The notes below the pieces were generated by a model, which saw only the letters and a list, made by a program, of their open reading frames with translations, did not search any database and was not told where the DNA came from. Of a stretch of 64,000 bases of DNA, positions 2,354 through 29,926 are shown piece after piece. How positions within the stretch are numbered: the first letter of the stretch is position 1; each line of letters opens with the position of its first letter. Made by a program: the position numbers and the translations under genes. Location of the stretch: positions 102,765 to 166,764 of the IMG/VR virus record IMGVR_UViG_3300023174_000057; one strand, written 5' to 3'. This DNA comes from a virus.

Positions 2354-3906
2354 TGGCACGCACCCCGGACACCACAGAGCTCGTTGACCGAATCCTCGCC
2401 CGTGCGCGGATCGCGGACTACCGCGCTCCCGTGAACGAGTTGTCGGGTGTTCGCACCTACCCGAGCGAGAAGCCCAGCAAGGGGATCGAGACGCCCAGCG
2501 GGGACTCGATCCATCACTCTCCCGGTGAGTCCCCAAGGGCCGACCGCGACCGTGCGGCCCCGATGCGCCCCGGCCAGAAGGACGAGCTCCTCCAGAAGAC
2601 CCCCGCCAACGTGGTCTTCAACACCCCCGGCCCGTCGAGCCAGAACGACGGGCAGAAGATCCACGTCCGCACCCCCGGCGAGCGCGGTGAGGACTACGGC
2701 CACCCCTTCAAGCTGAACGTCACCCCTCGACGGACGGCATCTGGGATCTACCCCTCCTACAGCGAGAAGCAGCGCGATCAGAGGGGCAAGGCCAAGGTCT
2801 ACTACAAGCGGTACTACAAGCGCAACCGTGGGAAAATCAAGGCTCGCGCCAAGCGCAACTACCTCCACAAGAAGAACAGCCCGAGCTTCAAGCGGAACAA
2901 GAAGTACCGCAACAGCAAGCAGTACGGCTGGCGGTTCAATCGCATCCCGTCCCGTGGGTACCGAGACCCTGCTGACCGCTCGCGGGACTACCGGGAGGTC
3001 AAGCGGGCTACGGTGGCCATCCCGTTCTACCACCCAAACTACGGGGAGGGCTTGGTCCTCGACGTGAGGGACCAAGACGTTCTCATTGAGCAGACGGACT
3101 CGATGGGCGGGGTGTATCTTGGAATCGGCACGGTGCCGTTCTTCACGTTCCTGCGCGGCGTTGAGTTCGACGACGAGGCGTCCATTGATGCCTTCTTCGA
3201 CCTCGCAGACGCGGACTTCGACCGTGACGGCGGGGACGACGGTGAGTCTCAGCGCCTCGCGACGTTCTACCGGGAGACGTTCCGGCCCGGGGACAACCTC
3301 GACCCGGGGCAGGGCGCTCAGAACTTGGGCGAGCCGTCTCCCGTGAACCCCTCCCTCCCGTACTACGACACGGATCACAACAGCCGCAAACCGGGCGAGG
3401 TGATGAACAACATCGGCCCGACCGACAACAACCCGGGCTCTGCCAAGGTGATCCCAGAGGGCCACGACTTTGAGAACCGCAAGGCCAGCGCCGTGCGTGT
3501 CGCCGCGAAGATGGCCGAGATCCTCCAAGGGATGGACCCGGGTATTCGGTCACGCGCGCGAGGTGTCACACCCAAGATCAAGCGCAGTGATCCGGGCAAC
3601 GTAGTCTACTCGTTCACGGTGCCGGGGAGCAAGGGGGAGTCCTACACCGTGAAGGTGAAGGGCGTCCCTTCGGGCAACGTGCGGACAATCAGCAAGATGG
3701 ACTTGCGCCTGTCCTGCACCTGTAATTTCTGGCAGTGGCAGGGACCGGAGCACTGGGCCAAGGCGGGCGACTACCTGTTTGGCAAGCCCCTTGGAACGGC
3801 TTCGCGCCCCACGGAGAAAGACCCGGACGGTCGCAACCGCCTGTGCAAGCACGCCGTGGCGGTGCTGGACCTGATCGGTCGCTGGCCCGCAGCGGGGAAG
3901 CGGTAA
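2353..3906 (+). CDS. Multi-segment protein with a basic region and C-terminal SWIM-like zinc finger
   Basis: Start reassigned to ATG 2353 (TGATG overlap); SCTCNFW...LCKH motif; K/R/Y-rich central stretch. Confidence 0.7.
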   Translation: MARTPDTTELVDRILARARIADYRAPVNELSGVRTYPSEKPSKGIETPSGDSIHHSPGESPRADRDRAAPMRPGQKDELLQKTPANVVFNTPGPSSQNDGQKIHVRTPGERGEDYGHPFKLNVTPRRTASGIYPSYSEKQRDQRGKAKVYYKRYYKRNRGKIKARAKRNYLHKKNSPSFKRNKKYRNSKQYGWRFNRIPSRGYRDPADRSRDYREVKRATVAIPFYHPNYGEGLVLDVRDQDVLIEQTDSMGGVYLGIGTVPFFTFLRGVEFDDEASIDAFFDLADADFDRDGGDDGESQRLATFYRETFRPGDNLDPGQGAQNLGEPSPVNPSLPYYDTDHNSRKPGEVMNNIGPTDNNPGSAKVIPEGHDFENRKASAVRVAAKMAEILQGMDPGIRSRARGVTPKIKRSDPGNVVYSFTVPGSKGESYTVKVKGVPSGNVRTISKMDLRLSCTCNFWQWQGPEHWAKAGDYLFGKPLGTASRPTEKDPDGRNRLCKHAVAVLDLIGRWPAAGKR

Positions 3907-3915
3907 GGTCGCACC

Positions 3916-4296
3916 ATGCCAACGTACACCTACGTCTGCACGTCCTGCGAGAGCCCCTTTGAGCGGTTTCTCTCCATTACCCGATGCGACGAAGCACAGT
4001 CCTGTGAGTCGTGCGGCGCACCGGGGCGGAAGACCATCTCGATGCCCAACTTCATCTTGAAGGGGGATGGCTGGACGGGCAAGAACATCAAGGTCGCGGG
4101 TCAGATGGCCGCGAAGAACCGTATCCTCGACAAGAAGCAGGAAGAGCGCAAGCGGGACGCTCCCGGTGTGCGCCTCGCGCCCAACGTGGACGGAGAGCGG
4201 GTGGACAACTGGGCCGACGCCCAGAAGCTCGCGGCGTCGAAGGGCAAGAACACCGAGAGCTACGACGCCAAGGTGCGTGAGGAGAAGGCCAAGTGA
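3916..4296 (+). CDS. FmdB-family zinc-ribbon protein
   Basis: MPTYTYVCTSC...FE...CESCG...ISMPNFILKGDGW matches the FmdB-type pattern. Confidence 0.75.
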   Translation: MPTYTYVCTSCESPFERFLSITRCDEAQSCESCGAPGRKTISMPNFILKGDGWTGKNIKVAGQMAAKNRILDKKQEERKRDAPGVRLAPNVDGERVDNWADAQKLAASKGKNTESYDAKVREEKAK

Positions 4297-5042
4297 CCCG
4301 TCAGCGAGAAATCCCTTCGGTCCTGTACCGACAGCCCAACTACATCAACATGACCTACCCGATCCTCCCCGGGGTGCCCAAGATCCGGGTGTCTGGGGCG
4401 GCGCGTCTGAACGACGCCTACGGGAACGTCGCTGGCGTCGGCGGTGGCGGTGCCCTCCCCATGTTCGAGGTTCTCTCGGGAGCCACCTTCGCTTCGCCCA
4501 GCGTGCGCGCCAAGAAGGTCCCGTTTGAGGACACGAACCGGGGCGTGACCCGGATGATCTTCGACCCGGATGACTTCGCCACCCCGGCACAACCACCCGG
4601 CACGAGCTACCTCCCCACGGACGACCAGACGCTCTTCCTACGGGTCGAGACGTGGAACCCGGCACTGGGCGTGTGGAACCCGCCCGGTCCGATCACGATC
4701 ATCCCCCCCTACGACTTCTTCACCACCAAGGAGCCCGTGTTCACCGTGACAGGGTTGGCTCCCAACATGGCCCTCGGCGCGTGGCCCGCTGGACTGCCCG
4801 ACTTCATGCCCCCCTTGGTGATGAACTTCATGCTCCCGGCGTACAGCCAGACCATCTCGGTCGGCAACCTAGACGCGGGAAAGGTGCTGTTCACGGCGTT
4901 CCATCCCGGTATGCCCCCCACGGTGATCCTGCCCAGTACGGACATGGGTCTCACCGGGTCGGGCGTGCCTGAGTTCTTCGTCGGGTGCCCGGACGGGAAC
5001 ATCTGGTTCACGATCCGCATCGCCGTGGTCAACAGCGCCTAA
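4293..5042 (+). CDS. Hypothetical structural protein
   Basis: 249-aa ORF; GTGA overlap with upstream gene. Confidence 0.65.
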   Translation: MTRQREIPSVLYRQPNYINMTYPILPGVPKIRVSGAARLNDAYGNVAGVGGGGALPMFEVLSGATFASPSVRAKKVPFEDTNRGVTRMIFDPDDFATPAQPPGTSYLPTDDQTLFLRVETWNPALGVWNPPGPITIIPPYDFFTTKEPVFTVTGLAPNMALGAWPAGLPDFMPPLVMNFMLPAYSQTISVGNLDAGKVLFTAFHPGMPPTVILPSTDMGLTGSGVPEFFVGCPDGNIWFTIRIAVVNSA

Positions 5043-5197
5043 GCCTCGGGGGCGGACCTCACCGTCATCTACGAGTGACCGTTCGCCCGCCCGTTTTCTC
5101 TTCTATCCCGTCACCGTAGGTAGGGCGGATTTCGTTCCCCCGCATGGATTGATCCCCGCCATGACAGGCGGAAACGAAACGAAACAGGAGACTCCCA

Positions 5198-7702: not shown

Positions 7703-10162
7703 ATGGCCTCGATTCAGTACAACAAGATCCTCGCAGTTCCCTCTTCGGGCCTCAAGAACCCGGCGGCTCCCAAGGCCGTTGACAGCCTCGCCCTGTCTCT
7801 CGCTGAGACGAGCATTCAGCTCGGCGCGAGCGGCTTCTTCAAGCTGCTCGACAGCGCGGGCGACAGCCTCCTCAACGCCCAGAACTCGGCCATCTCGTTC
7901 GCCCCGGACGCGAGCTTCTCGCAGGACCTCACGGTCAGCGGCGACACCATCCTCGCGGCCCTCTCGGCCACGAACGCCTCGTTCTCGGGCACGCTCGGCG
8001 TGACCGGGGCGTCCACCCTCGGCGTGCTCCACGCGGGCGCGACGGACGTGGACAGCCTCTCGGTGGACGTGGACGCCTCGGTGGGCGGCGAGCTCACGGT
8101 CAGCGGCGACTCGAACCTCGCGGACCTGTACGCGGCGGCGGCTTCGTTCTCGGGTGACGTGTCCGTCTCGGGCAACCTGACGGTCAACGGCAAGGTCACC
8201 ACGATCAACTCGGACCAGATCATGGTCCACGATCCGATCATGGTGCTGGCCGACGGCAACACGGCGGACACCTTCGACATCGGTTTCGTGGGCAAGCGCA
8301 AGAACGGCGCGGCCTTCGAGAACGTGTCGTTCTTCTACGACCAGTCGGCGGGCGAGTTCGCCGTCGCCAACGTCGGCACGACCTACGGTCAGGACGGCAG
8401 CAACAACTACCAGTCCCTCACCGTGGCGTCCTACATGGACCTCCACATCGCGGACCTCGCTGCGGCCAGCGCGGACTTCTCTGCGAACGTGGCGATCTCG
8501 GGCACCCTCTCGGCGGGCAACACCACCGTTGCCGACCTGACGGCTGAGGACGGCACGTTCTCGGGCGACATCGCAGCGGTCAACGCGACCCTCTCGGGCA
8601 ACATCTCCGCGGTGGACGGCACGTTCTCGGGCGACATCTCGGCGGACGACATCTCGGCGGCGACGGCGACCCTCTCGGGTGCCCTCTCGGCGGCTTCGGC
8701 CTCGATCTCTGGCGCGGCCACCATCGGCTCTACGCTCGACGTGACGGGTGCCCTCTCGGCGGCTTCGGCCAGCATCACGGGCGCGATGTCTTCGGGCTCC
8801 GTCTCGACGGGGAACATCAGCGCCACGGGCTCGGCCACCGTTGCCGGTGCGCTCTCGGCGGGCGCGACGGACGTGGACAGCCTCGCCGTGGACGGCAACG
8901 CCTCGGTGGGTGGGAACATCACCGCCGTCGATGCGACCCTCTCGGGTGACCTCGCCGCCGTGGACGCGGCCCTCTCGGGCGACCTCTCGGCGGTTGACGC
9001 CACCCTCTCGGGTGACCTCGCCGCCGTGGACGGCACGTTCTCGGGCAACCTCGCCGCTGTGGATGCGACCCTCTCGGGTGACCTCGCTGCGGTGGACGCC
9101 ACCCTCTCGGGCGACCTCGCCGCCGTCGATGCGACCCTCTCGGGTGACCTCTCGGCTGTGGACGCGGCCCTCTCGGGCAACGCCACCATCGCGGGTACGC
9201 TCGGCGTGACGGGAGCCCTCTCGGGCTCTTCGGCCTCGTTCAGCGCCAACATCGCTGCGGTTGACGCCACCCTCTCGGGCGACCTCGCTGCGGTTGACGC
9301 CACCCTCTCGGGCGACCTCACGGTCGCGGGTGCGGCGGACCTCGACGCCCTCACCGCTTCGGGCGCGGTTCACTTCACGGCGACTGACGATGTCCTCTCC
9401 ATCACCATCCCCGCGATGGCGGTCACCGAGAACTACGCTCTCGAAGTCGAGGGCGGCGTCCACATGGACGGCCACCTCTACCTCGCCAAGACGGGCGGCT
9501 CGCTCAACCTGAGCAGTTCTCCCGTCACCCCCGACTTCATGGTCGATGGCAAGTCGGTCTTCGCCGCGCGTCTGCAATCGGGCTCGGCGTCGAACCCCGA
9601 CTTCATGGTGAACGGTCACGCCCGGTTCAACTCGGGCTTCGCGGTGGACAGCGAGGAAGTGGCCTCGATCCGCGTCGGCAACGTGGCGGGCGACGCCATC
9701 TCGTTCTCGACGGGCACGGACGGCCACATCCACCTCGACGCTGCCAAGATCCTCCGTCTCTCGGCGGATCAGGGCATCGCGACGAACCACACCGCGAACG
9801 CCTCGGGCGCGGTGGCGGCGAACCTCGCCGTCTCGGTCAACGCCACGGGGGACTTCGTCGCCGTGCGCGCCAACGAGAAGAACGCCATCGTCCTCGGCGT
9901 GTCGCTCGCCAGCATCGCTGGTGCGTCGTCGGCCAAGGGCAAGGTTGCCGAGTTCGGCAAGGTGGAGATCGCCGTCGAAGGCGGGGCCAGCATCGCCATT
10001 GGCGACCTCCTGTACCTGTCGGCCAGCGAGGCGGGCAAGGTCACGAACGTCGTCCCGGTTGACGCGGACAGCACCGCGTACCTCATGGGCAAGGCCCTCC
10101 AAGCCCCCGTCGCGGGCAAGGTCAGCATCGCGCTGCACCGCCAGTTCCTCTACAACAACTGA
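7703..10162 (+). CDS. Fibre-like virion protein with 11-aa repeats and C-terminal capsid-cement-like (DUF2190-like) domain; putative head fibre
   Basis: AVDATLSGDLA repeats; GNLTVNGKVTTINS fibre-type segment; C-terminal GDLLYLS..EAGKVT...MGKA. Confidence 0.65.
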   Translation: MASIQYNKILAVPSSGLKNPAAPKAVDSLALSLAETSIQLGASGFFKLLDSAGDSLLNAQNSAISFAPDASFSQDLTVSGDTILAALSATNASFSGTLGVTGASTLGVLHAGATDVDSLSVDVDASVGGELTVSGDSNLADLYAAAASFSGDVSVSGNLTVNGKVTTINSDQIMVHDPIMVLADGNTADTFDIGFVGKRKNGAAFENVSFFYDQSAGEFAVANVGTTYGQDGSNNYQSLTVASYMDLHIADLAAASADFSANVAISGTLSAGNTTVADLTAEDGTFSGDIAAVNATLSGNISAVDGTFSGDISADDISAATATLSGALSAASASISGAATIGSTLDVTGALSAASASITGAMSSGSVSTGNISATGSATVAGALSAGATDVDSLAVDGNASVGGNITAVDATLSGDLAAVDAALSGDLSAVDATLSGDLAAVDGTFSGNLAAVDATLSGDLAAVDATLSGDLAAVDATLSGDLSAVDAALSGNATIAGTLGVTGALSGSSASFSANIAAVDATLSGDLAAVDATLSGDLTVAGAADLDALTASGAVHFTATDDVLSITIPAMAVTENYALEVEGGVHMDGHLYLAKTGGSLNLSSSPVTPDFMVDGKSVFAARLQSGSASNPDFMVNGHARFNSGFAVDSEEVASIRVGNVAGDAISFSTGTDGHIHLDAAKILRLSADQGIATNHTANASGAVAANLAVSVNATGDFVAVRANEKNAIVLGVSLASIAGASSAKGKVAEFGKVEIAVEGGASIAIGDLLYLSASEAGKVTNVVPVDADSTAYLMGKALQAPVAGKVSIALHRQFLYNN
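8924..9187 (+). repeat. In-frame 33-bp tandem repeat (8 units; further copies near 8540-8670 and 9257-9320)
   Basis: Encodes AVD(A/G)(T/A)(L/F)SG(D/N)L(A/S) units. Confidence 0.85.
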
Positions 10163-10262: not shown

Positions 10263-10673
10263 ATGTCCGACGAGAGCGCCCCGCAAGTCAACAAGTACCT
10301 TCACATGGGCCTCGGGGAAGCCGTGCGTAGGCTCCTCGACGTTGAGATCCAGTACCGGCACGGCCAGCGGGGGGAAGCCCTCGTGAAAGAACGCGACCTG
10401 ATTCTATCGGCCCTGAACCGGGTCGAGCTTCAGCTAGGGTTCGATTGCAACTCCGATGGGGTGCCCGACACCGTGGAGATTTTTCAGCAAGCTGCGGAAA
10501 CCTCCTGCTGCCGTATCACCTCGTTCGACCCTCCCGCCGCGCCCGCCCCCAAGGGGGAGTCCCTCATCGTTCTCGATTCCTCGCGGTCGCCCGACCCCCC
10601 CGCGACGGTCGAAACCGTCGCGGAGTCTGAAGGTCTATTCGCCCGACTGTTCGGAACAGGTAAGAAGAAATGA
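10263..10673 (+). CDS. Hypothetical protein with DxNxDG Ca-binding-like motif
   Basis: FDCNSDGVPD motif; ATGA overlap with next gene. Confidence 0.6.
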   Translation: MSDESAPQVNKYLHMGLGEAVRRLLDVEIQYRHGQRGEALVKERDLILSALNRVELQLGFDCNSDGVPDTVEIFQQAAETSCCRITSFDPPAAPAPKGESLIVLDSSRSPDPPATVETVAESEGLFARLFGTGKKK

Positions 10674-10954
10674 CCCCCTCGATCCCCTACCTCCTCGCAG
10701 CCTACGGGCTCACGTTCGGCCTGCAAAACAAGGCTCCGTTCCTTCGCGGGAAGTTTCGGTTCACCGATGCTCTGCTGAAGTGCAGCTATTGCACGGGGTT
10801 CCACGCAGGGTGGGTCACCTACCTCGCGTCCGTCCCGCTAGAACACTCGCACCTGACAAGGTGGTCCCTCGTCGCCGCCTTGGTGTGGGCGTTCGCCTCG
10901 TCGGCCTTCAGCTACTCCGTGGACACCGCCGTGCGACGCTTGGAGACTAAGTAG
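10670..10954 (+). CDS. Small membrane protein (DUF1360-like)
   Basis: Hydrophobic helices flanking LLKCSYCTGFHAGW. Confidence 0.55.
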   Translation: MTPSIPYLLAAYGLTFGLQNKAPFLRGKFRFTDALLKCSYCTGFHAGWVTYLASVPLEHSHLTRWSLVAALVWAFASSAFSYSVDTAVRRLETK

Positions 10955-10958
10955 CCTC

Positions 10959-11429
10959 GTGCCCCTCGTCGTCATCCCCCGTAACCCGTCTACGTCTACC
11001 TCGACGAACGTCGTCATCGACGGGGCCGTGTTCACGCCCCCCGGCGAACCCCCTATCTCGGGCGGCACGGGAACCCTTCGGTATCTGGGGATGGCCGTCG
11101 GTGCCCTCATGGACCCCGCAACGGGACAACTCAACCTGTTCCCCGTGAGCTCCCGCACGGAAGACAACCCGCAGATGTTCTACGGGTTCCTCACGGGCAT
11201 GGGCGGGTCGGGAATCATCGTCGCCACGGGGCGGGGTTCCATCGTCACCCCGCTGTCCGAGGACGAAGGACCCCTTGAACCGGGGAAAGACGTGTTTCTG
11301 TCTCTCGTACCCGGCTACGTCACCCAAGGGTACGAGATGGAAACCGAAGGCGGGGCGTACCTGCGGATCGGATACGCCCTCGACGGAACCCGCATCGTCC
11401 TCGCCACCGACACCCGCATTCAGTTCTGA
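10959..11429 (+). CDS. Capsid cement/decoration-like protein
   Basis: PGKDVFLSLVPGYVT...LRIGYA resembles the C-terminus of the 7703 protein. Confidence 0.5.
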   Translation: MPLVVIPRNPSTSTSTNVVIDGAVFTPPGEPPISGGTGTLRYLGMAVGALMDPATGQLNLFPVSSRTEDNPQMFYGFLTGMGGSGIIVATGRGSIVTPLSEDEGPLEPGKDVFLSLVPGYVTQGYEMETEGGAYLRIGYALDGTRIVLATDTRIQF

Positions 11430-11479
11430 GAGACTGCCATGACCCCCAGAACACCGCAGAGCCCCTGTAGGAGGAACCC

Positions 11480-12250
11480 ATGTCAGTAGTCTTCAACCCC
11501 GGACAGACCATCGGGCAGGGTGATCTAGACATCTTCCTGACCAACGCGGGCGGGTTCCCGGCGAACGCCTACAGCATCACCTACGCCATCTACTACGTCT
11601 CCCCCGGACCGCCTGAGACGGAGGTGCTCATCGGGTCCGCCACCCGCACGCCCGTCAACCCCACGGTGGGCGAGTACTACGCCTCCCTCACCGTGCCCGC
11701 GATGGCGACGCCCGGTGACTATCGCATCCGGTGGACGTTCCAGCAGTTCGCGGGTTCGCCCCCGCAACAAGTGGTGATGGAGTGGGGCGTCGTCTCGGCA
11801 GGGCTCATCGCCGTGGGTGCGTACAGCACCCTCACCCAAGGGATGATCGACAAGTTGCGGATTTTACTCCGCGACAACGCTCCAGATCGCAACTACCACT
11901 TCAGACCCCCGGAGGCCGAAGGCAACATTGGCGCTTACAACCGCGTCTTCGGTTACGTCTGGCAGGACAACGAGCTCTTCGAGTACCTAGAGCGCGGCAT
12001 GGACTGGTGGAACATGATGCCGCCCTCTACGGGCGGCTTCACCCTCGACCAGATGGTCCAGCAGAAGCCCGAGTGGCGCACGGCGGTCCTCTGGGACGCC
12101 ATCACCCACGCTTGCTTCGCCCTCGCGTGCAACTGGGTCGTTGACGAGTTCTCGGTGAGTTCTGTTACACTACTTCACCTATCCCTGCCCGATGGTAGGA
12201 AGGTCGAGGTACCCATTGGCGAGCTCTACGACATCTGCACCGACGAGTGA
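11480..12250 (+). CDS. Putative head-tail adaptor/neck protein, N-extein fused to a 32-aa split-intein N-fragment
   Basis: AGGAGG RBS; ends ...WVVDEF|SVSSVTLLHLSLPDGRKVEVPIGELYDICTDE*; neck role inferred from context only. Confidence 0.7.
   Translation: MSVVFNPGQTIGQGDLDIFLTNAGGFPANAYSITYAIYYVSPGPPETEVLIGSATRTPVNPTVGEYYASLTVPAMATPGDYRIRWTFQQFAGSPPQQVVMEWGVVSAGLIAVGAYSTLTQGMIDKLRILLRDNAPDRNYHFRPPEAEGNIGAYNRVFGYVWQDNELFEYLERGMDWWNMMPPSTGGFTLDQMVQQKPEWRTAVLWDAITHACFALACNWVVDEFSVSSVTLLHLSLPDGRKVEVPIGELYDICTDE
12152..12247 (+). mobile_element. Split intein N-fragment (Ser1, block A)
   Basis: S-V-x-x-x-T...PDG...V-P-I-G-E-L-Y resembles intein block A; codon usage turns more AT-rich at 12152. Confidence 0.7.
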
Positions 12251-13196
12251 CCTGTCTCCCCGTCAAGTGTCCGTTCGGTACGGGTTCAACACCCGCGCCG
12301 TGATGGAGCTCATCTATGACGGGGAGCTCGTCCTACAGGGCCGCAAGATCACCGCTGCGAGCCTCGCCTCCCTCGTCGAAGGGGAGCACTACGTTCGGTG
12401 CCGGGAGTGTGGGGCGTCCGCCGCGATGATCCACTCGGCACACCTGAAGGCGTGTTCCGGCTTGGTTTCGCTGGGCGAGTACCTAGCGAAGCATCCCGGT
12501 GCGCCCGTAATGTCGGAGCGGAACAAGGCCCGGAAAGCCAAGACCCCGGCACAGCGGGTGGCTCAATCACAGAAGCTCAAGGCCCGGTTCCAGACCGACG
12601 AGGGTGAACGCACCCGCCGACAAATTGCAGACGCCTCGCGGCAGATGCAGTCGTCGGAGTCCGGGCAACGCTGCAAGGACCACCTCCGCAAGATGAACGC
12701 GGACCCCGCCGTCAAAGCGCAACGTAGGGCCGACACCAAAGCCCGGTGGGAGTCGGGCAACCTTCGTGAGACGGTCGAAGGGTGGCATCGCGAGCACCGC
12801 GACGAGTCCCTGTCGTCGGCCCTCCACGCTAGGCGCTACATCCAGCGAAAGCGTACCAAGCTCCACCTTGGGTTCAAGGCCCTCATGGAGAGCAACGGCC
12901 TCACCGGGTTCATCACCGAGCACGAGGTCGGGTACTACGCCCTCGACGAAGCCCGCCCCGACTTGAAGATCGCTGTCGAGGTAGACGGCTGCTACTATCA
13001 CTCTTGTCTCCAATGCGGGCTCAAGGGTCCGGGAGGCACGCTCCGCACGGACAAGGCCAAGACCACCTACCTGACCCCTCGCGGGTGGACGGTGATCCGC
13101 ATTTGGGAGCACGACATCAACCGCGACCCTATGGCGTGCCTAGAACGTATCCGCCGACACATCGCGGACAAGGGACGTGAGAACCATGCTGGATGA
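12192..13196 (+). CDS. Free-standing Vsr/DUF559-like homing endonuclease (start uncertain)
   Basis: CRECG...HLKAC Zn finger; YALDEARPDLKIAVEVDGCYYH...DKAKT...GWTVIRIWEHD. Confidence 0.8.
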   Translation: MVGRSRYPLASSTTSAPTSDLSPRQVSVRYGFNTRAVMELIYDGELVLQGRKITAASLASLVEGEHYVRCRECGASAAMIHSAHLKACSGLVSLGEYLAKHPGAPVMSERNKARKAKTPAQRVAQSQKLKARFQTDEGERTRRQIADASRQMQSSESGQRCKDHLRKMNADPAVKAQRRADTKARWESGNLRETVEGWHREHRDESLSSALHARRYIQRKRTKLHLGFKALMESNGLTGFITEHEVGYYALDEARPDLKIAVEVDGCYYHSCLQCGLKGPGGTLRTDKAKTTYLTPRGWTVIRIWEHDINRDPMACLERIRRHIADKGRENHAG

Positions 13197-13815
13197 AGCA
13201 ACCCGAGCCGCAATCCGCGAAGCCTACCGAGCGGGCACCCTCAAGGTCGAAGCCGTGGACCCCGCGACGGGCGCGGCCTCCCTACAGACCGTCACCGCCG
13301 TCCTGAAACACAACACCCACCACAAAGACATGGTGCGGGTGACGCTGGCGGACGGTCGCTGGGTGGAATGCACCGTGGACCACAGCCTCTTCGCGATGGC
13401 CGGGGAAGGCGTCACGCCCGTCCTCGCCGGGGAACTCCGCGTCGGGTCTGTCATCGCCACGGTGTCCCAAGGGGTAGCCGCGGGCGTCGGAGTCGCTTCG
13501 GTGGTAGCCCTACCCCCCGAGGAACACACCTACGACCTGTCCGTGCCGGGACCGCAGAACTTCGTCCTCGCCAATGGAATCCTCGCCCACAACTCGTACT
13601 CCATCGGTGGCGTCTCGTTGGACATCGAGAAGAGCTCCAAGTACGAGAGCCTGAAGCAGAACGCTGAGTCACAGTTCGACAAAGCGGCGGAAGCCAAGGC
13701 CCGCACCGTCAAGTTCATCCGTGGCATCCAGCAGCCCAAGTACGGCATCGGTATCCGCTCCAGTTTCGGACCGTTTGTAGGTAGAGGGGTGTTGAGCCCC
13801 CGTAATTTCCTTTGA
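13186..13815 (+). CDS. Split intein C-fragment (136 aa) fused to the C-extein of the neck-like protein
   Basis: Block B ECTVDHSLF; block F/G YDLSVPGPQNFVLANGILAHN|SYSIGG (junction 13593/13594). Confidence 0.85.
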   Translation: MLDEATRAAIREAYRAGTLKVEAVDPATGAASLQTVTAVLKHNTHHKDMVRVTLADGRWVECTVDHSLFAMAGEGVTPVLAGELRVGSVIATVSQGVAAGVGVASVVALPPEEHTYDLSVPGPQNFVLANGILAHNSYSIGGVSLDIEKSSKYESLKQNAESQFDKAAEAKARTVKFIRGIQQPKYGIGIRSSFGPFVGRGVLSPRNFL

Positions 13816-13880
13816 ACCGTTCGTAGGCAGCGGGGTATTGACTCCTCGAATCAGAGCCCCCGCCCTCAACGAAAAGTATG

Positions 13881-13917
13881 GTATCGGGGTTGACTTCCCC
13901 GATACGGGGCTTACGAT
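13881..13917 (+). promoter_or_regulatory. Sigma70-like promoter with overlapping palindrome
   Basis: TTGACT-N16-TACGAT, 7 nt before ATG 13925; GTATCGGGG-N7-CCCCGATAC inverted repeat. Confidence 0.5.
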
Positions 13918-13924
13918 TCGGGTC

Positions 13925-15406
13925 ATGGAAGACCGACCCGAAGCCCCGTGCCCCGCCTGTAAACAATCCGTTCCCCTCAAGGGCCTCGCGAAGCACGCCT
14001 CGGGGTGTTCGCAATGGGGCACGCTAGGCGTGCCCGCGCTCCAGTTCAACTGGGACAGGTACTTCAAGCGCGGCGTCTACGCGGACGGGTTGACGGAGGG
14101 CACCGACTACGTTCGGTGCCTAGAGTGCCCGGACGGGGCGCGGGGAGACCGGGGCCTTCGCTTGATGGATCACGTCAAGAAGGTCCACGGCTTGACGAAA
14201 GAGGCGTACATCGAACGGCATCCGGGGGCTCTTCTCAACGTCCCCGGCACCCTAGAGCGCCGCAAGGCTACAGTATCGGAGCGGTACGACGGGGCGACCA
14301 ACGTGTTCCAAGTGCCCGACGTGAAGGATCGCATTCGGGACGTGATGGCCGAGAAGTACGGGGGCATGGGGGTGGGTTCCCCAGAGCTCCGAGCGAGGGT
14401 TGAGCAGACGAACGAGGTCCGGTATGGGAGTGCCAACCCGTTCGGGTCTGACAAGGTGCAGGAGAAGATTCGGGCGACGTGGCGGGAGAAGTACCAGTGC
14501 GACAACCCCAACCAGTCTCCAGAGATCATGGCGAAGCGTATTGCCACGAACCGCAAGACGCACGGCGCGGATCACTACGTCGAGACCGCCGAGTTCAAGG
14601 GGAAGTTCAAGGCGGCGAGCCAAGAGCGGTTCAAGGCGGACCATCCGATGCAATCGAAAGAGGGGCGCGAGTTGTGGGGTGCCGGATGCGTCGAGAAGCT
14701 GGGAGTAGATAACCCTCTCAAAGACCCGGACATCTATCAGAAGTCCTACGAGTCCAACCTCACCAACCACGGCGGGAAGCACTCGCAGCAGTGCCCGGAG
14801 GTGCTGGAGAAGGCACGGGCGACGTGGCGGGAGAAGTACAACACGGACAACCCGTCGAAGGTCGAAGCTGTCAAGCAGAAGATCAAGGACGTGTGGGAGG
14901 GGAAGTACGGGGTTCCGTTTCCGCCGCAGAGCTTGTGGCTGAACCAGACGCACTCGTCTCCCAACGGGCTGGAGCGGAAGGTTCAAGCGATGCTGCCCGT
15001 GTACGTCCTCTACACGGGTGACAAGACGTACAACGTGCGGTTGCCCGGTACGGCACGGGACAAGTACCCGGACTTCGTGGTGCTGGCCCCGGATCAGTTG
15101 CAAGCCTACCAGTCGGGGACGCCCTTGAAGTCCCTTCGGATTGAAGCCGCCATCGAGGCGTTTGGTTCGTACTGGCACGGCCCGGAGATGACCGGGGTAT
15201 CTCGCGAGGACCACTACAACGGGGTCATGGATTACTACGCCCGGTGCGGCCTTCGGTGTCTGATCCTGTGGGAGCACGACGTGGACAAGCGACCGGGCGA
15301 GGTGGCCGACCGGCTTCGGCGGTTCCTATCCGACGTGGCGGGGTCTGTAACCCATTCGGGCGTCGGGGCCGACCCGTCTGTTCTGGATTTTTTCCGAGGA
15401 GCTTGA
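13925..15406 (+). CDS. Vsr-like homing endonuclease with Zn fingers and KYG.DNP-type repeats
   Basis: CPAC...HASGC; repeats such as TWREKYxxDNP; YPDFV...IEAFGSYWHG...CLILWEHD. Confidence 0.8.
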   Translation: MEDRPEAPCPACKQSVPLKGLAKHASGCSQWGTLGVPALQFNWDRYFKRGVYADGLTEGTDYVRCLECPDGARGDRGLRLMDHVKKVHGLTKEAYIERHPGALLNVPGTLERRKATVSERYDGATNVFQVPDVKDRIRDVMAEKYGGMGVGSPELRARVEQTNEVRYGSANPFGSDKVQEKIRATWREKYQCDNPNQSPEIMAKRIATNRKTHGADHYVETAEFKGKFKAASQERFKADHPMQSKEGRELWGAGCVEKLGVDNPLKDPDIYQKSYESNLTNHGGKHSQQCPEVLEKARATWREKYNTDNPSKVEAVKQKIKDVWEGKYGVPFPPQSLWLNQTHSSPNGLERKVQAMLPVYVLYTGDKTYNVRLPGTARDKYPDFVVLAPDQLQAYQSGTPLKSLRIEAAIEAFGSYWHGPEMTGVSREDHYNGVMDYYARCGLRCLILWEHDVDKRPGEVADRLRRFLSDVAGSVTHSGVGADPSVLDFFRGA

Positions 15407-15409
15407 GAC

Positions 15410-15982
15410 ATGGATTCATTCATCCGTCCGTCACCAATTCGCGCGGTTCACTTCGCCAAGCAGAACGTCACCGAGACGCTTCGGGAGGTGTGGGACGAGG
15501 AGGGGGTGATGTACCAAGGGCAAATTCCATCCGGCGTCAAGGTGGGCGACCCGTTGGTGGTGCGACCCAGTGAGAGGGAGACGTGGTGGTTGGTCGTCGG
15601 GGGCACCGAGAGCGACCTCCGGGCTCGAAGGTGCCGCGCCCGGATCACCTTGATCCGTGACCGGGACGAGGTGGAGTACCTTCAGGGGGAGGTTGAGACG
15701 GCCCTGTTGCGGTTTGCTTCCCGCGAGTTCCCGTCGTATCGGGTAACGGTCGAACGGGACCGGGCTCCGCAGCGCGGGGCCACCCTGTTCGCCGTAGGCC
15801 CGGAGAAGCCTTTGCACTACGGGTCTGGGGGGAAGCTGTCGAAGGGGTGGGCGAACCTCGTTCTTGGGGACATCCCTCACGAGCGGGACGCGAAGCACCC
15901 TTACGTCAGTTCGATCAAAGTGGCCGACGTGGGCACCGAGGACGGTCTTCGGAAGTACCGGATTCGGGCCGATGTTCTCTGA
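15410..15982 (+). CDS. Hypothetical protein
   Basis: 190-aa ORF with GAGGAG RBS. Confidence 0.6.
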   Translation: MDSFIRPSPIRAVHFAKQNVTETLREVWDEEGVMYQGQIPSGVKVGDPLVVRPSERETWWLVVGGTESDLRARRCRARITLIRDRDEVEYLQGEVETALLRFASREFPSYRVTVERDRAPQRGATLFAVGPEKPLHYGSGGKLSKGWANLVLGDIPHERDAKHPYVSSIKVADVGTEDGLRKYRIRADVL

Positions 15983-16043
15983 CATCGGCATCCAGTGTTT
16001 GATCCTGTGGGAGTCCGAGGTGAAGACCGACCCCGAGGGTGTG
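15979..16043 (+). pseudogene. Stranded C-terminal remnant of a Vsr-like endonuclease (continues at 16657-16718)
   Basis: Translates DIGIQCLILWESEVKTDPEGV, similar to CGLRCLILWEHDVDKRPGEV of the 13925 gene. Confidence 0.6.
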
Positions 16044-16070
16044 GGCGATGGTCCAACCCTGTACGCCCGT

Positions 16071-16078
16071 GGGCGTAA
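16071..16078 (+). promoter_or_regulatory. Representative copy of GGGCGTAA promoter-like motif
   Basis: Also at 16711, 17293-17300(-), 22444, 54385-54392(-); 8-9 nt before the start codon in 4 of 5 cases. Confidence 0.6.
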
Positions 16079-16087
16079 CGTCTACCG

Positions 16088-16615
16088 ATGCCCACAAGGT
16101 TCCCAACTGGTGTCACGGTGTCCGAGGCGTGGTGGGGCACCCTCCCCGACTCATCTCGAAAGAACTGGCGGAGGGTGTTTCGGGCGTATGCTCGGTACGG
16201 GGTCAAGGTCATTGCGGACCCCTCCCACCGTGTTAATTTTCAGGGTTACGTCTACTCAGAGGGTGAGGCATCGCTCTTCACCGACGTGAAGGGCAACGAC
16301 CCCGCTCTCGCCCTCCACGATTTAGCACACTGGCGGGTGGCCCCCGTTGAGCGTAGGAACCTCCCCAACTGGGGTCTGGGGGATTTCCCCAACTACGACG
16401 ACAAAGCCCCCCGCACGGTGGACTATGAAGTCGCCTTAGAGGAGGAGTCTCTCGCATCCACATTGGGTGGTTTCATGGCGGGGGAGATCCTCGGTCTGGA
16501 ATACCGACGCTATGTGATGCGCGCCCTTGATGGGGGTGACACGGAGAGCATCCACATCTTGACTCAGCGGGGTCTGCTTGTGAAGCGGCCACGGAGTTAC
16601 CGGGTGGTGTGGTAG
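16088..16615 (+). CDS. Hypothetical protein with EpmC (EF-P hydroxylase)-like motif
   Basis: ALHDLAHWRVAPVERRNLPNWGLG...EEESLAS. Confidence 0.45.
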   Translation: MPTRFPTGVTVSEAWWGTLPDSSRKNWRRVFRAYARYGVKVIADPSHRVNFQGYVYSEGEASLFTDVKGNDPALALHDLAHWRVAPVERRNLPNWGLGDFPNYDDKAPRTVDYEVALEEESLASTLGGFMAGEILGLEYRRYVMRALDGGDTESIHILTQRGLLVKRPRSYRVVW

Positions 16616-27624: not shown

Positions 27625-27715
27625 GGTATCGGGTACTTCGTCTCTGGGAACGTGACCTCAACGAAAACCGTGACCGCTGCGTGCAAGCAATCAAGACCGC
27701 ATTGGGAGTGCTGTG

Positions 27716-29926
27716 ATGGCCGGAAAAGACAAGCAAGATCAACAGGTTGGGGCGGGGTTGGACGTGGGTACCATGAATGTGGTCGCGGCGAGGAAGTCCT
27801 CGTCGGGGGTCGAGACCCGTCGTGTGCGCGACGCCTTCTTGGAGCTCCCCGTGGAATCCAAGAAGATGCTGAAGCTCTCGAACGTGAGCTACGTCGAGCG
27901 CGCGGACGAGCTTCTCATCCTCGGTGACGCCGCGATGGACACGGCGAACATCTTCGGACGGGAAGCGCGTCGTCCGTTGTCGGCGGGCTTGGTGAGCTCG
28001 TCGGATGTGGACGCGATGGAGATCCTCGGGCTGCTCATCAAGAACGTGCTGGGCGAGCCCAAGGTGCCCAACGAGCACTGCTATTTCTCGGTCCCCGCCG
28101 CCCCCGTGGACAAGCCCGGGCAGGACGTGATCTACCACCGTGGGGTGCTGGAGAAGATCGTCCGTGAGTGCGGGTACACCCCCACGGCGGGCAACGAGGC
28201 GATGGCGATTGTCTACGCTGAGACCGCCAAAGAGAACTTCTCGGGCATCGGCATCTCGTTCGGTAGCGGGATGACCAACTGCTTGTCGGGAGACACGAAG
28301 GTTCCTCTTCTTGATGGAACCGAGAAGACGATGGAGGAGTTGGCGAACGGGGCTGCGGGCGAGTCTTTCTGGGTCTACTCCAGCACTCCCGAAGGTCAAA
28401 TCGTTCCGGGTCTAGCACACCACCCCCGACAGACCGGAGTGCAACCCGTTCTCCGCGTCCACCTCGACGACGGGACGCATTTCGACTGCACCCGCGACCA
28501 CCGGGTGATGCTTCGGGATGGGAGTTTCCTTGAGGCGGGAGACCTCGCGCAGGGAACGAGCTTGATGCCCTTGTACCGTTATCGGACGAAGTTCCGCACC
28601 AATTCCTATCAGTTTGTCAAGGACAACTCGACGGGGAAGTGGGTCAGCGAACATCGTGCGGTTATGGAGCACGTTCTTGGTCGTCCTCTTCTGCCCGGAA
28701 AGCAGGACGAGGTGATTCATCACCGGAACTACTGCGGGACGGATAACCGCCCTGAAAACCTCCAAGTGATGTCCAATCGAGAGCACCGTGAACTCCATGA
28801 GAAGCTCGGAAAGGGAAACAGGGATCGGACTCTCGGGAAGACGTGGGAGACGTTGTACGGCCCGGAGCGAGCATCGCAAATGAAGGCGAAGCTCAAAGCA
28901 TCTCGGAACGAACCTGAAGCACGCGCTGCCATTCTGTCTGGAGCGGCGCGGGGGTCGGCGCGCATGGTGGAACTCCGCAGCGGGAAGACTTGGGGCGAGT
29001 ATTTCGGTCTAGAACGGGCAGAGGAGATCCGTGCCCAGATGTCGCTCCCCAATATTCGTGAGAAGATGCGGGTCGGGGCAGCGAAGGGTCGAGCCGCGTG
29101 GGCTGGAGAAATCACAGGAAAGAGACTCTCAGATATTTACGGTGACGAGAAGGCCGCAGGGATCAAGTCCAAGCAATCCGCCGCCAAGAAGGGACTCTCT
29201 CTCGCGGAGATCGTCGGGGACGAAGCGAAGGCCCTCGAAATCCGTAAAGGGCTGTCCGCATCCCGTATGGGGAAGGCTGGAAAGTACGAGAGGACTCCCG
29301 AAATCAGAGCGAAGATTGCGGCATCCCTGCGGGCTCGCAAAAACGTCCAGCTTGAAGCCCCCCACAACCACAAGGTTGTTAGCGTGGAAGACCTCGGAGT
29401 CACGGTGCCCGTGTACGATCTGACTGTTGACGAGCATCACAACTTCGCGTTGTCTTGCGGGGTTTTCGTCCACAACTGCGCCCTCGCGGTCAACACCATC
29501 GAGGGGCTGTCGTTCTCCGTGGGGCGCGGCGGCGATTGGATCGACGGCGGTGCGGCCAAGTCCATCGGCAGCACTGCCAGCCGCATCTGCGCCATCAAGG
29601 AGAAGGGTGTGGACCTGAACGCCCCGCAGGGGCGCGAGCAGGAAGCCCTCACGTTCTACTACAAGAACTTGATCGAGTACTCCATCGACCAGATCGCCCT
29701 TCAGTTCGCGAGCGTGCAGGGGAAGTTCACTCTCCCGAAGCCCGTTCCGATCATCGTGTCGGGGGGTACTTCCAAGGCGGGCGGGTTCTTGGAGCTCTTC
29801 AAGAGCGTGTTCGACCGCAAGCGCAAGCGGTTCCCGATTGAGGTGAGTGAGATCCGCGCCTCTACCGACCCGCTCAACGCGGTCGCGAACGGGTTGCTCA
29901 TCCAAGCGATGCAGGAGAGCGAGTGA
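27716..29926 (+). CDS. Actin-fold ATPase (MreB/FtsA/ParM superfamily) interrupted by an intein
   Basis: GLDVGTMN (phosphate 1), NEAMA, GISFGSGMTN|...|CAL (phosphate 2), GGDWID, IVSGGTS. Confidence 0.85.
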   Translation: MAGKDKQDQQVGAGLDVGTMNVVAARKSSSGVETRRVRDAFLELPVESKKMLKLSNVSYVERADELLILGDAAMDTANIFGREARRPLSAGLVSSSDVDAMEILGLLIKNVLGEPKVPNEHCYFSVPAAPVDKPGQDVIYHRGVLEKIVRECGYTPTAGNEAMAIVYAETAKENFSGIGISFGSGMTNCLSGDTKVPLLDGTEKTMEELANGAAGESFWVYSSTPEGQIVPGLAHHPRQTGVQPVLRVHLDDGTHFDCTRDHRVMLRDGSFLEAGDLAQGTSLMPLYRYRTKFRTNSYQFVKDNSTGKWVSEHRAVMEHVLGRPLLPGKQDEVIHHRNYCGTDNRPENLQVMSNREHRELHEKLGKGNRDRTLGKTWETLYGPERASQMKAKLKASRNEPEARAAILSGAARGSARMVELRSGKTWGEYFGLERAEEIRAQMSLPNIREKMRVGAAKGRAAWAGEITGKRLSDIYGDEKAAGIKSKQSAAKKGLSLAEIVGDEAKALEIRKGLSASRMGKAGKYERTPEIRAKIAASLRARKNVQLEAPHNHKVVSVEDLGVTVPVYDLTVDEHHNFALSCGVFVHNCALAVNTIEGLSFSVGRGGDWIDGGAAKSIGSTASRICAIKEKGVDLNAPQGREQEALTFYYKNLIEYSIDQIALQFASVQGKFTLPKPVPIIVSGGTSKAGGFLELFKSVFDRKRKRFPIEVSEIRASTDPLNAVANGLLIQAMQESE
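28280..29476 (+). mobile_element. Cis-splicing intein (399 aa) with HNH endonuclease and NUMOD-like repeats
   Basis: CLSGDTKV start; CTRDH block B; IHHRNYCGTDNRPENL; VYDLTVDEHHNFAL..GVFVHN|C. Confidence 0.93.

Follow-up and report, generated by a model that had tools for sequence, protein, structure and literature searches.

How can a phage gene that is broken into two open reading frames (ORFs), with a nuclease gene lying between them, still give rise to a single protein? This question is raised by a locus within a 64,000-nt stretch of DNA (one strand; hereafter the window), which represents bases 102765-166764 of the 166.8-kb IMG/VR virus record IMGVR_UViG_3300023174_000057. The window has a GC content of ~64%, and the stretch was seen again in lake and freshwater metagenomes from several studies. 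CheckV estimates the completeness of the record at 39%, and since 166.8 kb represent so small a part of the genome, the source is suggested to be a huge phage. As judged from the sequence, we consider it very likely that the two halves of the gene product are joined by protein trans-splicing, and we assign a probability of roughly 0.88 to the reading as a whole, namely a fractured gene in which a split serine intein encloses a Vsr-like homing endonuclease gene and the halves are rejoined by trans-splicing. The fractured-gene arrangement as such is known; new are the host gene, the huge-phage setting, and the combination of Ser1/Ser+1 chemistry with an atypical split site of the S2 type.

Anatomy of the Fractured Gene

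The locus consists of three consecutive ORFs on the + strand, each in a different frame (11480-12250, 12192-13196, and 13177/13186-13815). The following features were located, whereby IntN and IntC denote the N- and C-terminal intein fragments and hyphens within sequences mark junctions:

11469-11474, + strand: Shine-Dalgarno sequence AGGAGG, 5 nt before the ATG of the N-half, read from the sequence
11480-12151, + strand: N-extein, 224 codons, ending ..ACNWVVDEF, colinear with residues 1-224 of homologues that lack the intein (P0005 being 93% identical) and with Tunturi_5 gp319
12152-12250, + strand: IntN, 32 codons from Ser1 (SVSSVTLL..ELYDICTDE) plus TGA stop, aligning with the N-terminal ~32 residues of contiguous same-site inteins
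12192-13196 (true start probably 12252-12267), + strand: free-standing homing endonuclease, by Pfam DUF559 and PHROG homing endonuclease families
13186-13593, + strand: IntC, 136 codons, with H42 (NX), T63..H66 (block B), D117 (block F), and H135 N136 (block G), by Pfam PF14890 and mini-inteins from the PDB
13594-13815 (coding to 13812), + strand: C-extein, 73 codons from Ser+1 (SYSIGGVSLDIEK..) plus stop, colinear with residues 225-297 of intein-free homologues
13594-13623, + strand: 30-nt patch with 12 differences from a co-occurring empty allele and a D/S to S/D swap at +1/+10, from a contig of sequencing run X3

The first ORF encodes 256 aa and ends with ..NWVVDEF-SVSSVTLLHLSLPDGRKVEVPIGELYDICTDE and the stop codon. 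The C-half ORF matches the Pfam family Intein_splicing (PF14890, 4.9e-13) and reads ..TVDHSLF..YDLSVPGPQNFVLANGILAHN-SYSIGGVSLDIEK.., the intein part ending with ..GILAHN. Since mini-inteins from the PDB (Tvo VMA, Pho CDC21, and Pho RadA) align to this ORF only from their residue ~40-75 to the terminal HN, the C-half lacks the N-terminal ~30-40 residues of the HINT fold (block A). In length and pattern, the 32-residue tail of the first ORF corresponds to this missing piece. The start of the C-half was placed at ATG 13186 by conservation among homologues, which yields an IntC-C-extein product of 209 aa. This ATG overlaps the endonuclease stop codon (13194-13196) by 11 nt (13186-13196), and the endonuclease ORF also overlaps the N-half at 12192-12250 if ATG 12192 is used.

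Much of this layout had been described before by a model that saw only the letters and a list of ORFs. The ORFs 11480-12250 and 13186-13815 indeed lie where this original prediction had placed them, and its further elements were recovered by independent means: the block-A-like 32-mer from Ser 12152 at the end of the first ORF by alignment to contiguous same-site inteins, the C-half with blocks B, F, and G ending HN-S and without block A by Pfam and the mini-intein alignment, and the Vsr-like nuclease gene between the halves by DUF559 and profile matches to 3hrl, 3r3p, and Vsr. The atypical short-IntN split with Ser1/Ser+1 holds for the window as well as for its relatives. One part of the layout has to be corrected: the endonuclease ORF overlaps both of its neighbours, and judging by the conserved N-terminus, its translation probably starts near 12252-12267.

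The Two Exteins Are Parts of One Protein

The N-half as a query against 5.8 billion proteins yielded 1039 matches. Most of the best 120, which were listed, comprise 295-301 aa and read ..NWV(V/A)DEF-DYSIGGVSLSIEK.., and the nearest among the listed matches (P0005) is intein-free and 93% identical. An uninterrupted homologue of 283 aa was also found by tblastn in the jumbo myovirus Tunturi_5 (gp319, 28% identical, ..EADQF-DYSLNGVSL..). Because intein-free homologues run contiguously across the junction, the two exteins are parts of one protein. The original prediction had expected a contiguous DEF-(S/D)YSIGG in such homologues, and this is what they read; its counter-scenario, in which the exteins are separate proteins, does not agree with homologues that read straight across the site. 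The locus also has the features of the fractured genes of Dassa et al., i.e., adjacent ORFs whose exteins are colinear with one uninterrupted homologue and which each bear an intein half.

Among 80 IMG/VR loci, 63 were scored as empty at the site, to which L051 and L052 can be added (junction DEF-DYSIGG). One locus (L014) carries a contiguous 165-aa intein at the site, and eight are split exactly like the window, with inserts of 1449-1506 nt versus 1442 nt in the window. The split arrangement occurs in about one fifth of the best homologue clusters and is not rare in this phage clade.

Alternatively, the insert might be lost at the level of nucleic acids, either as a group I or II intron or through excision or inversion of DNA, with the intein-like motifs being incidental; or a contiguous intein that includes an endonuclease might only look split because of an assembly error or a frameshift. 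We regard this as the least probable of the explanations considered and hardly credible. Vsr-like endonucleases do also reside in group I introns (PMC2677866; PMC3239194), but no Rfam intron was found at E<=1 over 10500-16500, which also speaks against the removal of the insert by RNA splicing that the original prediction had named as a refutation, and the ends of the insert coincide exactly with the intein ends Ser1 and HN-S. As to an artefact, the three frames, the conserved IntN stop, and the conserved IntC Met recur in assemblies from at least three studies and in >100 clusters. Since the same split is present in >100 independent metagenomic relatives, and two further studies assembled it, chance or artefact can be excluded as its origin.

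The Halves Probably Form a Serine-Dependent Intein Split at an Atypical Site

Of 25 longer homologues found, at least 18 are interrupted at this very position by a contiguous mini-intein of 159-185 aa, in each case with Ser1 and with Ser or Thr at +1. The joined IntN and IntC of the window (168 aa) align end to end with these contiguous inteins at 36-58% identity, whereby the break falls into a length-variable loop between ..ELYDIC.. and ..IREAYxxGxLxV... Contiguous P0123 (58% identical) was represented by an AlphaFold2 (AF2) model, in which the intein has 10-residue block means of the predicted local distance difference test (pLDDT) of 73-96, with values of at least 82 over residues 231-370. 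The model shows a helix at 246-254 (alpha1), a loop at 255-259 that corresponds to the split point, and an extra helix at 260-267. Foldseek aligned the P0123 intein to mini-inteins with E values down to 6e-12 and TM-scores (TMt) of 0.75-0.89, including 7oec (6e-12, TMt 0.82), 1mi8 (TMt 0.89), the cysteine-less Aes123 PolB1 intein 9hth (6e-11, TMt 0.75), and VidaL (6vgv). With phmmer, the alignment between the P0123 and Pho RadA inteins ran from residue 11 through to the end, and the break lies after the alpha1 equivalent of the latter. Thus, the complete HINT fold expected by the original prediction is supported by proxy, i.e., by the model of contiguous P0123 and the colinear alignment of the joined halves. 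An IntN of 32 aa in the window and 31-35 aa in the relatives together with a break after alpha1 is what defines the S2 class (IntN 15-37 aa), and the split is therefore at the S2 atypical site in the nomenclature of PMC13014065, as in AceL-TerL and GOS-TerL.

For the analysis of residue conservation, the C-half was used as a query, which gave 982 matches, and the best 117 listed halves of 200-240 aa (54-96% identical) were taken. All of these begin within a few residues of the same point. T63, D65, H66, D117, H135, and N136 are invariant in 117/117, and at +1, 104 of the halves have Ser and the other 13 have Thr, while Cys does not occur. H42 is likewise invariant (117/117), preceded by Arg or Lys in 83 and by Gln in 27 (Lys in the window). 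It thereby represents the NX motif, a His ~25-40 residues before block B preceded by Arg or Lys. According to Pasch et al. (2023; PMC10189870), this motif is specific to Ser1/Ser(Thr)+1 inteins, three of which were found to require it for splicing. In the N-halves of split alleles, Ser1, the LPDG motif, and I.EL are conserved throughout, and Ser1 is kept in all contiguous homologues as well. With Ser1 in a block A-like N-terminus, TxxH, the block F Asp, HN, and Ser or Thr at +1, the intein has the features of class 1. It is not fully cysteine-less: Cys29 (IntN) and Cys62 (IntC) are present, both non-catalytic, whereas the IntC lacks Cys in 15 of the 117 listed relatives.

It might be that the two halves are merely docked non-covalently by the intein fragments and that the protein works unspliced, like the fragmented NrdA of Aeromonas phage Aeh1. 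Phage split proteins that assemble without splicing are known (PMC3045599), and the insertion site lies in a low-confidence, probably surface-exposed hairpin of the AF2 model. Docking would not explain, however, why residues needed only for the chemistry (T63, H66, H42, D117, H135, and N136) are invariant in 117 diverged C-halves with Ser or Thr at +1, nor why Ser1 is kept in all N-halves. In addition, the compensating +1/+10 pair described below matters only if the hairpin is re-formed. We therefore judge non-covalent docking to be improbable.

The same data bear on the idea of a dead insertion, in which the gene would be inactivated in this phage and would either be dispensable or have a substitute copy within the 60% of the genome that the record lacks. 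This idea draws on the 39% completeness of the record and on a gene family without experimentally known function. Against it, the three ORFs are intact in the window and in 8/8 IMG/VR split loci, and the C-half is intact in >100 further protein clusters. Moreover, no catalytic residue is lost in intein halves that are only 38-55% identical, extein conservation is as high in split as in empty alleles (C-extein 70-82%), and the 166.8-kb record, which was searched for it, holds no second copy of the host gene. A dead insertion thus appears slightly less probable still than mere docking.

Proposed Mechanism of Trans-Splicing

According to the preferred reading of a trans-spliced fractured gene, the mobile cassette would be a class-1 serine-dependent mini-intein with a free-standing Vsr-like (EDxHD) endonuclease gene placed in the loop that follows alpha1. 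Three products would be made, namely N-extein-IntN (256 aa), the endonuclease, and IntC-C-extein (209 aa). The 32-aa IntN would dock on the 136-aa IntC and complete the HINT fold, whereupon Ser1 would undergo the N-O acyl shift, Ser+1 would carry out trans-esterification, and Asn136 would cyclise. The predicted product is a 297-aa protein joined as ..NWVVDEF-SYSIGGVSLDIEK... The endonuclease would most likely cut intein-free alleles around DEF-DYSIGGVSLS, so that the whole cassette is copied, and the ~30-nt patch would be copied along with it, supplying Ser+1 and the compensating Asp+10. The anatomy of the locus, its homology and conservation, and the polymorphism of the alleles are seen in the data themselves; from these we infer splicing, the activity and target of the endonuclease, and the translation starts.

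Several observations weigh against this proposal. Characterised Ser1 inteins are often slow or inefficient (PMC13014065; PMC10189870). The ATG of the C-half is preceded by a weak ribosome-binding site (AAGGGA at about -15), and its expression may depend on coupling to the endonuclease ORF, the start codon of which is itself uncertain: ATG 12192 lies inside the IntN, the conserved N-terminus is found near 12252-12267, and there no ATG, GTG, or TTG occurs until GTG 12267. Furthermore, an intact second copy of the host gene could lie in the remaining ~60% of the genome.

A Vsr-Like Homing Endonuclease Lies Between the Intein Halves

The endonuclease ORF (12192-13196) matches Pfam DUF559 with 1.6e-6 (28.4 bits versus a cut-off of 20.6) as well as PHROG homing-endonuclease families. 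An intact orthologue of 317-346 aa, 42-53% identical to that of the window, is present in 8/8 IMG/VR split loci, and this divergence from the window is similar to that of the exteins (54-61% identity) and of the IntC (38-55%). In the six loci where the IntC ATG can be placed (i.e., without L037 and L039), the endonuclease stop overlaps or abuts this ATG.

The alignment of the orthologues revealed a helix-turn-helix (HTH)-like N-terminus, an invariant C-x2-C..H-x3-C (CCHC) zinc finger, a basic helical region, and a C-terminal nuclease with the motif ..IDEA..E(V/I)(D/N)GCYWH..DK.K... A single-sequence phmmer search against the PDB found only 3hrl (0.019), while a profile of seven orthologues matched 3hrl (DUF559; 4.5e-6), 3r3p (I-Bth0305I; 4.1e-4), and Vsr (0.08-0.14) with the catalytic positions aligned. 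Of these positions, D227, E238, H245, and D262 are invariant among the orthologues, and position 240 is D or N. Because of the profile matches and the aligned catalytic positions, we assign the enzyme to the Vsr-like/EDxHD family. Homing endonucleases of the EDxHD type were characterised by Taylor et al. (2011), with I-Bth0305I as the prototype (PMC3239194), and Vsr-like endonucleases occur in half of the fractured genes of Dassa et al. (2009; PMC2677866).

A programmed frameshift that fuses the IntN to the endonuclease was also considered and rejected, as the long frame overlap (open from 12159) is not conserved in the relatives.

Empty, Contiguous, and Split Alleles at One Site

Contigs from four public sequencing runs were compared with the window. 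Run X4, from a different study, contains a 6-kb contig with the same split at 96% identity, and run X3, from another study, contains 100%-identical contigs that cover the insert. An intein-free allele is present in run X3 as well: in a 1255-nt contig (depth 10.8), position 12151 is followed by 29 other letters, which encode DYSIGGVSLS, and then directly by 13623. Compared with the window, this allele differs at 12/852 nt upstream and at 0/305 nt downstream; the initial 30 nt of the C-extein contain 12 differences, of which seven are synonymous. In run X15, loose ends of this empty form were found. An empty junction in the same run as the insert could be taken as a sign of DNA excision. The contig differs from the window by the recoded 30-nt patch, though, and therefore represents another allele rather than an excision product. 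The cassette and the ~30-nt patch are thus present or absent on nearly the same background in one lake metagenome. This pattern fits homing with a short co-conversion tract or a target site that was recoded for immunity, and the 30-nt patch is likely to be the endonuclease target or a co-conversion tract.

The patch contains a pair of covarying residues. After an intein, the residues at +1/+10 are S/D in 117, T/D in 15, S/E in three, and S/S in one case, and in 92 empty alleles they are D/S (67), D/T (21), D/N (3), or E/S (1); ten more empty alleles have S/D or N/D and may be candidates for precise intein loss. Positions +1 and +10 flank a GG turn, for which AF2 models draw a small low-confidence hairpin. 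We infer that a cross-strand Asp-Ser pair was swapped so that +1 became free for the nucleophile. As this covariation makes sense only if the hairpin is rebuilt, it points to splicing taking place.

In a FastTree tree of the IntC region, contiguous inteins are scattered among split ones (topology without branch support). At least five contiguous inteins are 70-84% identical to a split intein versus 55-63% to the nearest contiguous one (P0123 with split P0162, 84%; P0126 with P0213, 77%; P0129 with P0167, 77%; P0139 with P0266, 71%; P0124 with P0191, 70%). Based on these pairwise identities, the split and contiguous states may have interconverted several times. We tentatively suggest, well aware that the opposite has somewhat better chances, that empty, contiguous, and split-plus-endonuclease alleles interconvert repeatedly at this one site and that the split state would be no dead end. 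Such interconversion could proceed either by repeated endonuclease loss with in-frame re-fusion or by repeated homing into the intein loop.

Other insertions affect the same gene family. Three homologues of 604-616 aa (P0132, P0134, and P0140) have two contiguous inteins per gene, one at each of two insertion sites. In a 485-kb uncultured phage (locus L002; LR745208.1, 352000-360000), the same gene is uninterrupted at the site of the window and fractured at a different one (..LLRDQ-CLGGEE.. and ..TGHN-CPDRDYHF..). The ORFs lie on the minus strand (4582-5079, 3508-4551, and 2705-3598), and the intein is of the Cys1/Cys+1 type with a 33-aa IntN, split after alpha1 around a TnsA-like nuclease ORF (PF08722, 1.2e-9).

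Comparison With Known Split Inteins

Fractured genes were described by Dassa et al. (2009; PMC2677866) in phage-like contigs of the Global Ocean Sampling (GOS), where split inteins such as gp41-1, gp41-8, NrdJ-1, and IMPDH-1 surround free-standing GIY-YIG or Vsr-like endonuclease genes. The locus of the window resembles these in the three-ORF layout, the Vsr-like endonuclease family, the overlapping frames, and the phage setting. In contrast to their hosts, which are DNA synthesis and repair enzymes and terminase, its host is a probable virion protein of a huge phage, without an assigned family. Moreover, the five inteins of Dassa et al. that were analysed in detail are canonically split (PMC13014065), whereas that of the window is split after alpha1 and has Ser1/Ser+1.

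Natural atypical splits are known at S1 (VidaL and PolB16) and at S2 (AceL-TerL and GOS-TerL), with IntN of 15-37 aa (PMC13014065). AceL-TerL and GOS-TerL (Thiel et al., 2014; Bachmann and Mootz, 2015), as summarised in PMC13014065, share the natural S2 split and the metagenomic phage origin with the window. Their IntN comprise 25 and 37 aa compared to 32 aa in the window, and they are described there as cysteine-dependent and reside in the terminase large subunit, whereas both nucleophiles of the window's intein are Ser; going by the title of Bachmann and Mootz (2015), GOS-TerL combines a serine with a cysteine nucleophile. PolB16 OarG (Pasch et al., 2023; PMC10189870) is similar in its natural atypical split, Ser1/Ser+1, NX His, and non-catalytic cysteines. 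It is split at S1 after beta2, has an IntN of 15 aa, and stems from a PolB polymerase of a sheep-gut metagenome, while the family of the window is split at S2 with 31-35 aa and, unlike PolB16 OarG, keeps an invariant block-B His. The Aes123 PolB1/CL intein (9hth; phmmer 0.0077 to P0123) is also a Ser1/Ser+1 class-1 intein with an extra element after alpha1, but it is naturally split at the canonical site in a DNA polymerase, and its short-IntN version is man-made. The other Ser/Ser split inteins in the literature that was compared have canonical splits, and where hosts are given (Aes123, CP21, LCGC14, and GOM-OPS-1), these are PolB-type polymerases. As for the endonuclease, I-Bth0305I (PMC3239194; 3r3p) shares the Vsr-like domain, and its catalytic positions align to invariant or conservatively replaced residues; I-Bth0305I is intron-encoded and has NUMOD/HTH N-terminal repeats, whereas the enzyme of the window has a CCHC zinc finger and lies between intein halves. 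In a limited collection of papers, full-text searches turned up no description of huge-phage virion genes with a split intein.

With this locus, the range of fractured genes grows beyond replication enzymes and terminase and takes in a probable virion component of huge phages, and if the proposed trans-splicing is true, particle assembly would hinge on a post-translational ligation. Serine-only split inteins with a short N-fragment are sought in protein engineering, and PolB16 is listed as the only natural one, being as of March 2026 the only known natural cysteine-less atypically split intein (PMC13014065). The family described here comprises >100 diverged natural variants with IntN of 31-35 aa and with matched contiguous relatives, which, again if the proposal holds, would constitute a library of >100 serine-only, short-IntN split inteins that work without thiols; an IntN of 31-35 aa exceeds the ~25 aa that are convenient for peptide synthesis. 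Furthermore, empty, contiguous, and split states can be compared at one insertion site, even inside one lake sample, and because a single site has all three states, the origin and turnover of split inteins become directly testable. If the suggested interconversion is true, the clade would represent a natural time series of intein splitting and re-joining.

Host Protein and Neighbouring Genes

Neither the N-half nor the extein family gave a Pfam or PHROG match, and a protein atlas contained only unnamed viral clusters for the host protein. The 28% identical homologue gp319 of Tunturi_5 carries the label "head-tail connector" from a Phold annotation. In the AF2 model of P0005 (pLDDT 71), residues 1-110 fold into an Ig/macroglobulin-like sandwich (Z up to 9.2), and residues 116-220 form a helical domain that weakly matches chains of cyanophage portal-tail complexes (8i4m_G, Z 7.9; 9k09_d, Z 7.2), with scores within the noise range for helical folds. 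When the intein-free model was compared with the PDB by Foldseek, the Ig-like N-domain was the only part matched. BFVD yielded uncharacterised phage proteins for the most part and some matches to BppU_N, tail, and neck-passage proteins. On this weak structural basis, it is plausible that the host gene encodes a part of the virion.

Upstream of the N-half, a gene at 7703-10162 encodes an 819-aa repeat-rich fibre-like protein with bactofilin-like repeats (2.1e-8) and PHROG tail-fibre matches; a mirror ORF on its opposite strand is probably a compositional artefact. Between 11449 and 11450, just 5' of the N-half start, a 96% identical contig of run X4 shows 1597 additional letters, which may be another mobile insert in a close relative.

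Directly downstream of the C-half, a second free-standing homing endonuclease is encoded at 13838-15406 (DUF7487, 1.2e-48). This enzyme and that encoded between the intein halves are paralogues that have the zinc finger and the Vsr-like C-terminus in common (BLASTP 1e-5 and 3e-6), and the downstream enzyme is equally placed in L002 (1143-2576). The ORF 15864-16289 includes, at ~15975-16050, 25 residues (..GIQCLILWESEVKTDPEGV..) similar to the C-terminal nuclease part of this downstream enzyme (E 1e-4 in a single comparison); they may be the remnant of a decayed endonuclease gene. Further inteins are also found in the record: a contiguous maxi-intein with an HNH endonuclease domain (PF14890, 3.3e-15; PF13392) lies within a Volactin-family gene at 27713-29926 (PF25216, 5e-69), and two more intein matches are located at C1:44984-45919 and C1:83728-85053.

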